A stretch of 64,000 bases of DNA, taken from the IMG/VR virus record IMGVR_UViG_3300010222_000169. One strand, written 5' to 3'. The DNA comes from a virus. How positions within the stretch are numbered: position 1 is the first letter of the stretch; the number at the start of each line of letters is the position of its first letter. Positions 57,611-59,728 of the stretch are shown here, in pieces. The notes beneath the pieces are model-generated. The model was not told the DNA's origin. It made no database searches and saw nothing but the letters and a program-made list of their open reading frames with translations. The position numbers and the translations under genes were made by a program.

Positions 57611-58377
57611 CACCCCTCGAATATCGAAAATTCGAACTCCACGCCGATACGAGCGCCTATCAGCGCCGGATTCGGCAGGCACGCGACCGGGTCGCTGCCA
57701 GTGTCGATCGGTACGGAACACCCTACGTCGCCGTCTCCGGCGGCAAGGACTCGACGGTCCTCTACCACCTCGCCGTTGCGGAACTCGGCACCGGAGTCGA
57801 TGTGTTTCACTTCGACTGGGGGCTCAGAAACATCCCCGGGATCAACGAACACATCCAAGAACTCGTCGAGGCCCACGGCGGGGCGCTCATCCAGCGGACG
57901 AGCGAGGACGTCACCGACGAGGAGACGTTCGCCGCCGACGAACACAAGGGGATGGCTGGGATCATGGGTTGGGTCGCGCGGCTGAAGGACGATCGGGACT
58001 GGGACGTCGGGCTGCTGGGCATCCGGGCCGAGGAGTCGGCGAAACGTCGCGAGGACTACGCCGGCGATCCGCCGGTCCGGCATATGGGCCCCGTCCCGAC
58101 GACGGCCCCGATCCACGACCTGACGACGGCGGACGTCTGGGCGTACATCATCAAGCACGGCCTTGACTACCCCGACCATTACGACGAACGTGGCGAGTTG
58201 TTCGACGGGATCGACGCCGACGAGAACCGCCTTGTCACCATGTACGACCACGAGTTCGACGACAAGGGGAGCGAAGCCCTCTCTCAGTTCCAGTATCCAG
58301 GGGAGACGAACGAGTTGAAGCGAATCGAACACGAGCACCACCCCGAGACGGAGACAGGAGAGAGGGACGATGCCTGA
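57607..58377 (+). CDS. cysH: CysH-like / PAPS-reductase-family PP-loop protein
   Basis: VSGGKDSTVL, LGIRAEESAKR, PIHDLTTADVWAYI. Confidence 0.9.
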   Translation: MTPLEYRKFELHADTSAYQRRIRQARDRVAASVDRYGTPYVAVSGGKDSTVLYHLAVAELGTGVDVFHFDWGLRNIPGINEHIQELVEAHGGALIQRTSEDVTDEETFAADEHKGMAGIMGWVARLKDDRDWDVGLLGIRAEESAKRREDYAGDPPVRHMGPVPTTAPIHDLTTADVWAYIIKHGLDYPDHYDERGELFDGIDADENRLVTMYDHEFDDKGSEALSQFQYPGETNELKRIEHEHHPETETGERDDA

Positions 58378-59728
58378 ACGGCTCGTCCTCGAACTCGACG
58401 CGACCGCCGACTGTGCGTTCGATCCCGACTTCGGCTACAAACTTCAGGGCCGGGTCTATCAAGCGATCGCGGACACGCGCCTTGATGAGGTCCACGACTC
58501 GGACGCGCCGGCACCGTTCAACTTCTCGGACCCGCGACCGTTCGGCGCGATGGACGAGGGGGACGGCCGGACGATCATCCTGACATCGCCCCACGGCCGC
58601 GAACTCTACGATCATCTCGTCGCGGATCTCGAAGCCGACCCGGAGCTCAACCTCGGAGCAATGACGTTCCGCGCGACCGACGCCTACACGGTCGAGATCG
58701 ATGTCGGGCCGCCGGGATCAACCGGCACGATCACCACGCCGACCGGCGTCGTCCAAGCCCTCTCCGAGCAGGTTCGTGAGGAGTACGACATCGACCGCGA
58801 TGTCGGTGGCAAGCTCTACTGGCGACCCGACAATCACTCACCGGCAGCGTTCCTCGATCAACTCCGGACGAACATCACCCAGAAGATCGACGCCTACTAT
58901 CCGCCGTCGGTTGTCGGGCCGAGAGACAGCGACGGGCCGCTGTTCACGCGCTACGACCTCGAGGACTCGGGCGCGATGCAGAAGACGGTGACGACCGACA
59001 CGACGGGGCTGCTGTTCTACTCGAAATGGGGCTTCGAGTACGAGGTTCGCGACAGCACGCACCGGACCTGGCTGAACGCGCTGCTGGCATGCGGCCTCGG
59101 CGCGAAAAACGCCTACGGGCTGGGTTATGTCCACGTTACCGACCAAAACTGCGTTCCCGAACCGGAGGAAGGGCCGGGCCCGACCGTGGGCGACCCGGAC
59201 GGCGGGATTGAGAACGGCGTCTGTCCGACCTGCGATCGCGACGGCTTCAAAAACGCACAGGGAGTTCGCCAACATCACGCGAGAGTCCATGATGAACGCC
59301 TCCTCGACGAGCGGACGTGTCCGAACTGCCGGGAGAGGTTCGAGGTGCCGCTGTGGAAGGGGAAGAAGTTCTGCGGCCGCGGCTGTTCGAACGAATTCCG
59401 GGGCAAGGGGCAGCTTGAGACGCGATCCTGTGGCTGGTGTGGCCTCTCGCTCGAAACGTGGCCGTCCTGGGATACTGAGCACCACCAGGAGTGTTACTAC
59501 GAATCCCGGGCGGACGGGCGCGATCGCCCCGACACCCTCGATGCGCTGGCGCGGGAGTTGTACGACGACGAGGAACGCTCGATCGCGGAGGCTTGGCGGC
59601 TGGCTCGGGGCCACGGCTTCGACGTGACGAAGGACGAGTTCCGCGACCGGCTTGACGAGATGGGCGTGCTCCGGCAGTCACTCGCTTATCAGCTCAGAGC
59701 GACCGACAGCGACGAGGGGCGGGCTTGA
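58370..59728 (+). CDS. cas6: Cas6 endoribonuclease fused to C-terminal Zn fingers and helical domain
   Basis: KLQGRVY...FNFS, GTITTPTG, G-loop GLGAKNAYGLG; then CPTC..H..H, CPNC..FC..C, CGWC. Confidence 0.85.
   Translation: MPERLVLELDATADCAFDPDFGYKLQGRVYQAIADTRLDEVHDSDAPAPFNFSDPRPFGAMDEGDGRTIILTSPHGRELYDHLVADLEADPELNLGAMTFRATDAYTVEIDVGPPGSTGTITTPTGVVQALSEQVREEYDIDRDVGGKLYWRPDNHSPAAFLDQLRTNITQKIDAYYPPSVVGPRDSDGPLFTRYDLEDSGAMQKTVTTDTTGLLFYSKWGFEYEVRDSTHRTWLNALLACGLGAKNAYGLGYVHVTDQNCVPEPEEGPGPTVGDPDGGIENGVCPTCDRDGFKNAQGVRQHHARVHDERLLDERTCPNCRERFEVPLWKGKKFCGRGCSNEFRGKGQLETRSCGWCGLSLETWPSWDTEHHQECYYESRADGRDRPDTLDALARELYDDEERSIAEAWRLARGHGFDVTKDEFRDRLDEMGVLRQSLAYQLRATDSDEGRA

Follow-up and report, generated by a model that had tools for sequence, protein, structure and literature searches.

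A virus that encodes a Cas6 protein in the absence of a CRISPR array raises two questions: which RNA could such a protein act on, and what do the domains fused to it contribute? This situation was found in a 64,000-nucleotide (nt; 64-kb) stretch of viral DNA (IMG/VR record IMGVR_UViG_3300010222_000169), hereafter called the window. An open reading frame (ORF) of 452 amino acids (aa) near its end begins as a Cas6 domain and runs on in frame into a tail of zinc-binding modules and helices, and it is the last gene of an operon with a type IV-B CRISPR-Cas layout. From sequence comparisons and structure predictions, we conclude that its product is a fusion of two components that are encoded separately in related IV-B operons of haloarchaeal mobile elements, a Cas6 and a zinc-finger/helix-turn-helix (HTH)-like module. 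The initial annotation of this DNA had described the ORF, its Cas6 part with the GLGAKNAYGLG loop, a C2H2 finger, the CPNC..FCGRGC and CGWC motifs, and a helical end, and all of these were present where it had placed them. The features of the fusion are as follows.

58370-59728, + strand: ORF of the Cas6::zinc-finger/HTH-like fusion, 452 aa (P0006), last gene of the operon (ORF translation)
58370-59149, + strand: Cas6 domain, aa 1-260 (AlphaFold, Foldseek, and profile matches)
58493-58495, + strand: codon of His42, the predicted catalytic histidine (alignment to 3pkm_A)
59093-59125, + strand: glycine-rich loop GLGAKNAYGLG, a Cas6 signature, aa 242-252, intact
59150-59218, + strand: acidic, poorly conserved linker, aa 261-283 (23 residues), in which the orthologues vary in length
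59222-59290, + strand: C2H2 finger CPTC-x13-HH-x3-H, aa 285-307, with ligands invariant in the orthologues
59318-59386, + strand: first knuckle CPNC..FCGRGC, aa 317-339, FCS/TRASH-like (pattern CxxC...FCxxC)
59429-59494, + strand: second knuckle CGWC...HHQEC, aa 354-375, the same repeat in a CCHC version (motif and conservation)
59522-59704, + strand: C-terminal helical bundle, aa 385-445, HTH-like (four helices, predicted local distance difference test [pLDDT] score 90-98)

The AlphaFold model of the N-terminal half, which was based on a 72-sequence alignment, reached a pLDDT of 95.7 and has the double ferredoxin-like (RNA recognition motif) fold of the Cas6 superfamily. When this model was compared with the PDB using Foldseek, the top 25 matches were all Cas6 structures (probability 1.0; template modelling [TM] scores 0.66-0.75), including 5yi6, 3i4h, 3pkm, and 4c9d. 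The family profile matched solved Cas6 chains with an expect value (E) of 1.5e-23, and phrog_23325 matched the Cas6 domain with an E of 9.8e-51. The Pfam model Cas_Cas6_C (PF01881) scored 25.7 bits against a cut-off of 23, and TIGR01877 matched the fusion with an E of 1.3e-6 and 29.1 bits, below its cut-off of 58.65. His42 was invariant both in the 12-sequence alignment and in 63 type I-B Cas6b sequences, and the profile alignment paired it with His46 of Pyrococcus furiosus Cas6 (chain position 51 in 3pkm_A). Similarly, Tyr30 was aligned with Tyr31 of that protein, and the position of its Lys52 is occupied by Ala in the window protein; His46, Tyr31, and Lys52 form the catalytic triad of P. furiosus Cas6. 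Within the glycine-rich loop, G242, G244, and G252 were invariant and G250 was at least 90% conserved in the 72 family members. We regard the N-terminal half as a Cas6 domain on the strength of its sequence and its modelled fold. A tblastn search of this half against 50,697 phage records gave no match, even at an E of 1.

Two unusual relatives were also recorded. In one IV-B-linked Cas6 (P0162, positions 1239-2021 of locus L081), an Arg replaces the catalytic-type His of every other family member examined, which recalls the Arg-based active sites described for Csf5 (PMC8175902). In a metagenome protein of 468 aa (P0047), the first 140 residues are Cas6-like and 40% identical to the window protein, and the remainder resembles, by eye, the C-terminal part of a Cas3-type helicase; this protein may stem from an internal deletion in a type I-B locus or from chimeric assembly.

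The tail was modelled (aa 284-445) with a pLDDT of 86 as a C2H2 finger, two knuckles each consisting of a beta-hairpin and a short helix, and four well-packed helices. The Cys and His ligands of the finger were invariant in the orthologues and in a five-sequence C-terminal alignment; among 23 members of the wider tail family, H302 and H307 were invariant and C285, C288, and H303 were at least 90% conserved. The Pfam zf-C2H2 model matched relatives with an E of 1e-7, and the window protein itself had no Pfam match in the tail. A likeness of this finger to those of two other ORFs of the window had been proposed, and pairwise alignment confirmed it, for a single finger only, in ORF 1890-2954 (53% identity over 32 aa, E 2e-7) and ORF 27367-28590 (37% over 30 aa, E 1e-4). 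The finger resembles those of the proteins P0007 and P0008. The second of the two ORFs (27367-28590, - strand) encodes an HNH endonuclease with an N-terminal C2H2 finger, four repeats of the homing-endonuclease-associated kind (Pfam HNH_repeat, E 3e-70), and a C-terminal HNH domain, and a further ORF (60964-61536, - strand) encodes a short HNH endonuclease with CxxC knuckles.

The two knuckles follow the pattern CxxC...(F/Y)C(S/G)xxC. All four Cys of the first knuckle were invariant in the 23 family members; in the second, C354 and C357 were invariant, C375 was at least 90% conserved, and a His stands in place of the third Cys of the relatives. The zf-FCS matches of the relatives were weak (E about 2e-3), and the nearest structure cluster in the ESM Atlas was zf-FCS, with a TM score of 0.36-0.47 (<0.5). 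For the helical end (model residues 118-175), VIA-align against PDB representatives retrieved HTH and winged-helix domains exclusively (Z 3.3-4.2), including those of RecX, ArgR-N, and GcrA, although these matches were weak and below a trustworthy level. A Foldseek search of the PDB with the C-terminal model returned generic C2H2 arrays alone and no match at E ≤ 0.001. The neighbours in the AlphaFold DB and the ESM Atlas, all with low TM scores, were accessory parts of HNH, DUF559, and NUMOD nucleases, a TRASH-domain protein, and viral zf-FCS proteins. The zinc-finger segment has an isoelectric point (pI) of 7.7 and is the sole non-acidic part of a protein and operon with pI values of 4.4-5.3, which fits nucleic-acid binding in a halophile.

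The initial annotation had offered two explanations for the tail: a Cas6 that had gained a DNA-binding or regulatory module, or the remnant of an endonuclease. A Pfam search found no HNH or other nuclease domain in the tail, and a match to phrog_1271 was confined to the non-catalytic profile positions 171-246 of 361. The lack of a nuclease match and the existence of nuclease-free stand-alone relatives ruled out the endonuclease remnant, and it is the first explanation, a genuine Cas6 joined to a module of the nucleic-acid-binding type, that was retained.

A fusion of this kind might also arise when a missed stop codon or a frameshift in one assembly joins cas6 to a separate zinc-finger gene, and the two parts are in fact separate genes at other loci. 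A search of 5.8 billion proteins identified five relatives, three of them full length and two truncated, all of them metagenome orthologues with the fusion preserved, so the fusion is not unique to this assembly. The three full-length orthologues (P0002, P0003, and P0004; 455-460 aa) are 61-65% identical to the window protein and align with it end to end, and the gene order csf3-x-cysH-fusion was repeated on two of the orthologue contigs. The ratio of nonsynonymous to synonymous substitution rates (dN/dS), calculated from a codon comparison of three operons in which synonymous sites are at or near saturation, was 0.15-0.24 for the entire fusion gene. It came to 0.18-0.29 over the Cas6 half, was lowest in the zinc region (0.09-0.10), and reached 0.11-0.16 at the helical end. 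The linker alone appeared free to change, with nonsynonymous differences (pN) of 0.55-0.61 compared with 0.16-0.25 in the domains. An artefact would have to account for a single open frame of 455-460 aa on three independent metagenome contigs from different samples, which stays intact across saturated synonymous divergence, and a shared error in all four assemblies is implausible because their proteins diverge by 35-39%. We consider the probability of such an artefact to be negligible; a missed stop codon or a chimeric assembly was excluded by the orthologues and by the purifying selection on both halves. By these comparisons, the fusion is judged to be genuine, conserved, and under selection.

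Each half of the fusion also occurs alone, as shown by an exhaustive HMMER search of 1.8 billion representative proteins, in which many Cas6 proteins of about 255 aa were found. The exact architecture of the tail was found in four stand-alone proteins of 165-190 aa (P0015, P0055, P0058, and P0077). P0015, which is 48% identical to the tail, begins at the stop codon of a gene whose product has a CysH-like C-terminus, and the gene for P0055 overlaps the end of a PAPS_reduct gene. P0058 is encoded between csf3 and cysH in locus L081, where the order is csf2-cas6-csf3-ZnF-cysH, so that cas6 and the zinc-finger (ZnF) gene are separate genes of the same operon. P0077 lies on a 1-kb contig, on which no neighbour was shown to be cysH-like. 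The association of the tail with cysH is thus defined by three loci plus the fusion lineage. None of the longer members of the tail family that were checked (ChaoS9 gp75, L005, and L082; the longer members have three to six knuckles) adjoins cysH, and a scan for related loci with the C-terminal alignment confirmed nothing in the metagenome or viral collections. A predicted complex of the CysH-like protein and the C-terminal module scored 0.00, a value that has no bearing on binding either way. When two genes stand apart in one operon and are joined in another, this is a classic sign that their products act together, and on this genomic evidence we consider the tail to be a partner of cysH and IV-B operons in its own right.

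We then asked which Cas6 proteins are the closest kin of the Cas6 half. A scan of one genome per prokaryotic species identified 73 loci with stand-alone Cas6 homologues (33-42% identity), all of them haloarchaeal. Type I-B arrays with 30-nt repeats of the GTTTCAGACGAACCCTTGTGGGGTTGAAGC type were located within 10 kb in 58 of the 73, and this repeat is nearly the same across haloarchaea. No csf or cysH neighbours were found at any of these chromosomal loci, and the one that was checked gene by gene (L011, Natronorubrum sulfidifaciens) has the type I-B order cas6-cas8b-cas7-cas5-cas3-cas4-cas1. Of 86 alignment columns with a conservation of at least 90% in I-B Cas6b, the window Cas6 retains 53, including H42, the DVGxPGxxG, SKW, VRD, and HR motifs, and the glycine-rich loop.

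In a maximum-likelihood tree, eight IV-B-linked Cas6 proteins (that of the window, P0002-P0004, P0009 from L004, P0162 from L081, P0042 from L088, and P0037 from L089) and 18 chromosomal I-B Cas6b proteins lay on opposite sides of one branch (96/83), and a single change of label was sufficient in all 200 bootstrap trees. Nine metagenome proteins, whose context is not known, were interleaved with the eight IV-B-linked proteins. The claim made here is therefore limited to the separation from I-B Cas6b, and an exclusive clade of the eight known IV-B Cas6 proteins was rejected (p-AU 1e-5). Within this limit, the tree places the window Cas6 on an IV-B-linked branch beside, and distinct from, the I-B Cas6b clade, and this position apart from I-B Cas6b ruled out a recent capture of a host cas6.

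The loci with a IV-B-linked cas6 showed two layouts. The window, L001, L002, and L004 have the order csf2-csf3-(x)-cysH-cas6, and L081, L088, and L089/L090 have the order csf2-cas6-csf3-(x)-cysH. The second layout places cas6 between the cas7 and cas5 genes, as expected of an effector subunit, and suggests that Cas6 may serve as one. Related IV-B operons without cas6 were found in L085, the sole match among 401 haloarchaeal genomes, and in L086, a 73-kb virus-like contig, and cas6 was also absent from 15 more distant IV-B loci of IMG/VR. On this distribution, Cas6 appears to be an accessory gain in part of the lineage. This agrees with the view, already expressed in the initial annotation, that Cas6 is atypical of type IV-B: canonical IV-B systems have no Cas6 (PMC8175902), and 12 exceptions have been recorded (PMC7038947).

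The operon of the window consists of seven abutting or overlapping genes on the + strand (53914-59728), of which the following six precede the fusion.

53914-54675, + strand: csf1, Cas8-like large subunit, first gene of the operon (TIGR03114, weak, E 0.0056)
54672-55154, + strand: putative cas11, small subunit, without a family match (assigned by slot and similarity)
55154-56092, + strand: csf2, Cas7 (Pfam RAMPs, E 1.8e-6; TIGR03115, E 2.4e-8)
56097-56894, + strand: csf3, Cas5 (TIGR03116, E 3.1e-18)
56894-57610, + strand: glycosyltransferase-like gene (marginal match to Pfam Glyco_trans_2_3, E 0.065)
57607-58377, + strand: cysH-like PP-loop gene, a type IV-B hallmark (Pfam PAPS_reduct, E 1.4e-11)

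The csf1 product is 41-47% identical to its counterpart at the head of the L085 and L086 IV-B operons, and the putative cas11 product is 35-41% identical to that of the gene in the corresponding slot there. The core set of type IV-B (csf1, cas11, csf2, csf3, and the cysH-like gene) is therefore present in one operon, with csf1 identified by a weak match and cas11 by position and similarity, and the operon is of the type IV-B layout plus two extra genes. The ATG of the fusion (58370) overlaps the stop codon of the cysH-like gene by 8 nt, and these genes are translationally coupled; 70 homologues of the cysH-like gene were found. The glycosyltransferase-like gene is 71-77% identical to the genes in the same slot of L001, L089, and L090. 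No adaptation genes were found in the 64-kb window, and a megablast search of the operon likewise gave no match. The G+C content of the window is 58-71%, its proteome is strongly acidic, and it encodes a portal protein, a large terminase, and head, tape-measure, and baseplate proteins; the high G+C content, the virion genes, and the acidic proteome mark it as a tailed virus of haloarchaea.

Some further features of these operons were noted. A 66-aa ORF (53631-53831, - strand), divergent from csf1, resembles by eye a ribbon-helix-helix regulator and could control the operon. The glycosyltransferase-like gene of the window (56894-57610) is 71% identical to its counterparts in L089 (9414-10130) and L090 (2539-3255), and Csf2, Cas6, Csf3, and CysH of these two loci are only 25-31% identical to those of the window; the gene appears to be mobile among divergent IV-B operons and to land each time directly upstream of cysH. 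Two related contigs, the virus-like L086 (11945-14388) and L087 (8052-10495), carry a second, larger PAPS_reduct+DUF3440 gene, which follows the IV-B cysH gene at a distance of about 3 kb on the downstream side and lies close to a ParB_N gene, and elements of this type therefore have two different PP-loop enzymes.

The question of the RNA substrate was addressed by searching the window and nine related loci. The 64-kb window contained neither a CRISPR array nor a mini-array nor a solitary repeat, and no array, mini-array, solitary repeat, or I-B-like repeat was found in the nine loci; the absence of an array to process, on which the initial annotation had remarked, was thus borne out. In the window, no I-B-like repeat was present with up to three mismatches and no site matched at least 19 of the 30 bases, a level (19-21 bases) that shuffled windows reach. 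The window and the related loci likewise yielded no repeat-like element that is conserved and no shared non-coding element, the intergenic RNA structure of related viruses lying outside this comparison. The initial annotation had put forward host arrays or an element at 36.4 kb as the source of a Cas6 substrate. Host arrays are a plausible candidate. The proposal of the 133-nt element (36379-36511, - strand) received no support: Rfam gave it a tRNA-like score (32.4 bits; gathering score 29), and it bears no likeness to I-B repeats; ARAGORN found no tRNA in the window. A comparison of 1,899 spacers from 58 I-B arrays with the window gave, as the best match, 23 of 25 bases of a 36-nt spacer, which was not significant after correction for multiple testing. 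Two 24-nt direct copies (50094-50146), 88% identical and 29 nt apart from start to start, lie near the end of the packaging block; their spacing is not CRISPR-like, and they could be a regulatory or packaging site.

Taken together, we lean towards the reading that the fusion is an accessory subunit of the Csf complex that binds RNA and carries a nucleic-acid-binding tail. The Cas6 half would bind, and probably cut, a repeat-type RNA. Pre-CRISPR RNA (pre-crRNA) from host type I-B arrays is the leading candidate because the nearest family processes the near-invariant haloarchaeal I-B repeat, and for host crRNA as the actual substrate we hold this as a tentative proposal, with the odds somewhat against it. 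Cas6 would then stay on the end of the RNA, as it does in type I-B and IV-A complexes, and the viral Csf2/Cas11 filament would thereby be given a defined RNA. The zinc-finger segment and the HTH-like end may add nucleic-acid binding, probably to DNA, or may couple the complex to the CysH-like enzyme. The outcome could be either use or sequestration of host guides. A bolder version of this reading, which we consider unlikely, is that viral IV-B is an RNA-guided system with stolen guides, in which Cas6 would capture host I-B crRNAs for the Csf filament and the zinc-finger/HTH module would link the CysH-like enzyme, and also the glycosyltransferase, to the bound nucleic acid. If this were true, the function of type IV-B would be guide-directed chemical modification rather than cleavage.

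Several results weigh against the reading of the fusion as a guide-binding subunit. The searches of the window and of the nine related loci yielded no RNA substrate, and the RNA bound by a recombinant IV-B complex of Mycobacterium was heterogeneous and did not consist of the co-expressed crRNAs (PMC7937560). The window Cas6 is 33-41% identical to I-B Cas6b, just under the minimum within the I-B group (41%), and it differs at 33 of the 86 conserved I-B columns, so its RNA specificity may differ. In one IV-B-linked relative (P0162), Arg occupies the position of the catalytic His. The fold assignments of the tail are weak (Z about 4; TM <0.5). Both cas6 and the zinc-finger gene are accessory because many related IV-B operons do without either, and the frequency of Cas6 cannot be inferred from a sample in which most of the Cas6-bearing loci were found via Cas6 itself.

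Three other explanations were considered. The viral Cas6 might be a stand-alone anti-CRISPR decoy that competes with host Cas6b for pre-crRNA or mature crRNA, or that enters the host Cascade unproductively, and so blunts I-B immunity without the viral Csf proteins. The close kinship with host I-B Cas6b and the near-universal 30-nt I-B repeat of haloarchaea are consistent with this, and viral interference with Cas6-dependent steps is known, e.g., RNA anti-CRISPRs that engage Cas6f (PMC11656645). However, csf/cysH operons are the only setting of the gene, its translation is coupled to that of cysH, its position between csf2 and csf3 in the second layout suggests an effector subunit, and a decoy would not need the conserved zinc-finger/HTH tail, so we regard a decoy as improbable. 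A similarly low probability was given to the possibility that the Cas6 half processes a viral non-CRISPR RNA, such as an operon hairpin or a small RNA, and that the Csf complex uses this RNA as its fixed RNA. IV-B complexes do assemble on non-CRISPR RNA (PMC7937560), the window has no array, and the branch is distinct from I-B Cas6b and differs in more than a third of the conserved columns noted above. Nevertheless, the search of the window and the related loci for a conserved repeat-like or shared non-coding element came up empty, which is absence of evidence alone, and the element at 36.4 kb resembles a tRNA and has no relation to CRISPR repeats.

The fusion might also be mainly a DNA-binding regulator, with a tail that binds viral or host promoters and a Cas6 half that acts as an RNA sensor or an inactive scaffold. 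The tail is indeed like DNA-binding accessory modules, with its HTH-like end (Z about 4), its C2H2 finger, and its AlphaFold DB and ESM Atlas neighbours in HNH endonucleases, and the zinc-finger segment is the only part that is not acidic. However, a regulator of this kind does not explain why the catalytic-type His and Tyr and the glycine-rich loop have been kept, why the Cas6 half is under purifying selection as strong as that on the tail, or why relatives encode Cas6 without any tail, and we consider this explanation very unlikely.

The accessory-subunit reading can be compared with known systems. Haloarchaeal I-B Cas6b proteins (e.g., that of L011) are like the window domain in fold and length, in their 33-41% identity, and in His42, the DVGxPGxxG, SKW, VRD, and HR motifs, and the glycine-rich loop. 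The window domain differs in that it is on a separate branch, has csf and cysH neighbours instead of cas8b, cas7, cas5, and cas3, has no array nearby, and carries a 190-aa C-terminal extension. The operon shares with the Csf complex genes of Mycobacterium sp. JS623 (PMC7937560) the core gene set and its order, the lack of an array and of adaptation genes, and a mobile-element carrier. It differs from canonical IV-B in having a Cas6, which is fused to a zinc-finger/HTH module, an inserted glycosyltransferase-like gene, and a tailed virus of haloarchaea as its carrier. IV-B systems in archaeal viruses have been reported first, and only, for viruses of Bathyarchaeia (PMC10541130).

In type IV-A, the Cas6 protein Csf5 is the crRNA-processing enzyme and remains part of the Csf complex (PDB 6njy; PMC8175902). 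Csf5 is likewise a Cas6-fold protein encoded within a type IV effector operon, and 6njy was a Foldseek match of the window domain (E 3e-9). However, IV-A systems have their own array and DinG, whereas the window domain is without a cognate array and resembles archaeal Cas6 and I-B Cas6b far more than it does Csf5. The Cas6-RT-Cas1 protein of Marinomonas mediterranea (PDB 6dd5), which was among the fold matches, also has Cas6 as one domain of a multi-domain Cas protein, but its partners are a reverse transcriptase and an integrase for adaptation, and the partner in the window is a small zinc-finger/HTH module without an enzymatic domain. The accessory modules of haloviral and phage HNH endonucleases (phrog_1271, ChaoS9 gp75, and ORF 27367-28590) combine a C2H2 finger and CxxC...CSxxC knuckles with subsequent helical elements of the DNA-binding type. 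The tail is 29% identical to ChaoS9 gp75 over 155 aa, but it has no HNH or other nuclease domain, and only the general type of module (zinc knuckles plus HTH) is common to both. Type IV-B with a rare Cas6 was therefore already known; new, as far as these comparisons indicate, is a Cas6 of a distinct IV-B-linked branch that is fused to a cysH-associated zinc-finger/HTH module.

In IV-B complexes, RNA is bound along the Csf2 filament, and where this RNA comes from is an open question (PMC7937560, PMC8175902). Canonical IV-B offers no handle on that source because it is without both an array and a processing enzyme. The Cas6 of the lineage described here is close kin to the well-studied haloarchaeal I-B Cas6b, the substrate repeat of which is known and nearly invariant, and because of this kinship the idea that IV-B scavenges or sponges host crRNAs becomes testable in the tractable Haloferax. 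A second recurrent accessory component was also identified, namely the zinc-finger/HTH protein encoded beside cysH. Because this protein is fused to Cas6 here, the arrangement of the genes argues that RNA capture, nucleic-acid binding, and the CysH-like enzyme may act together.

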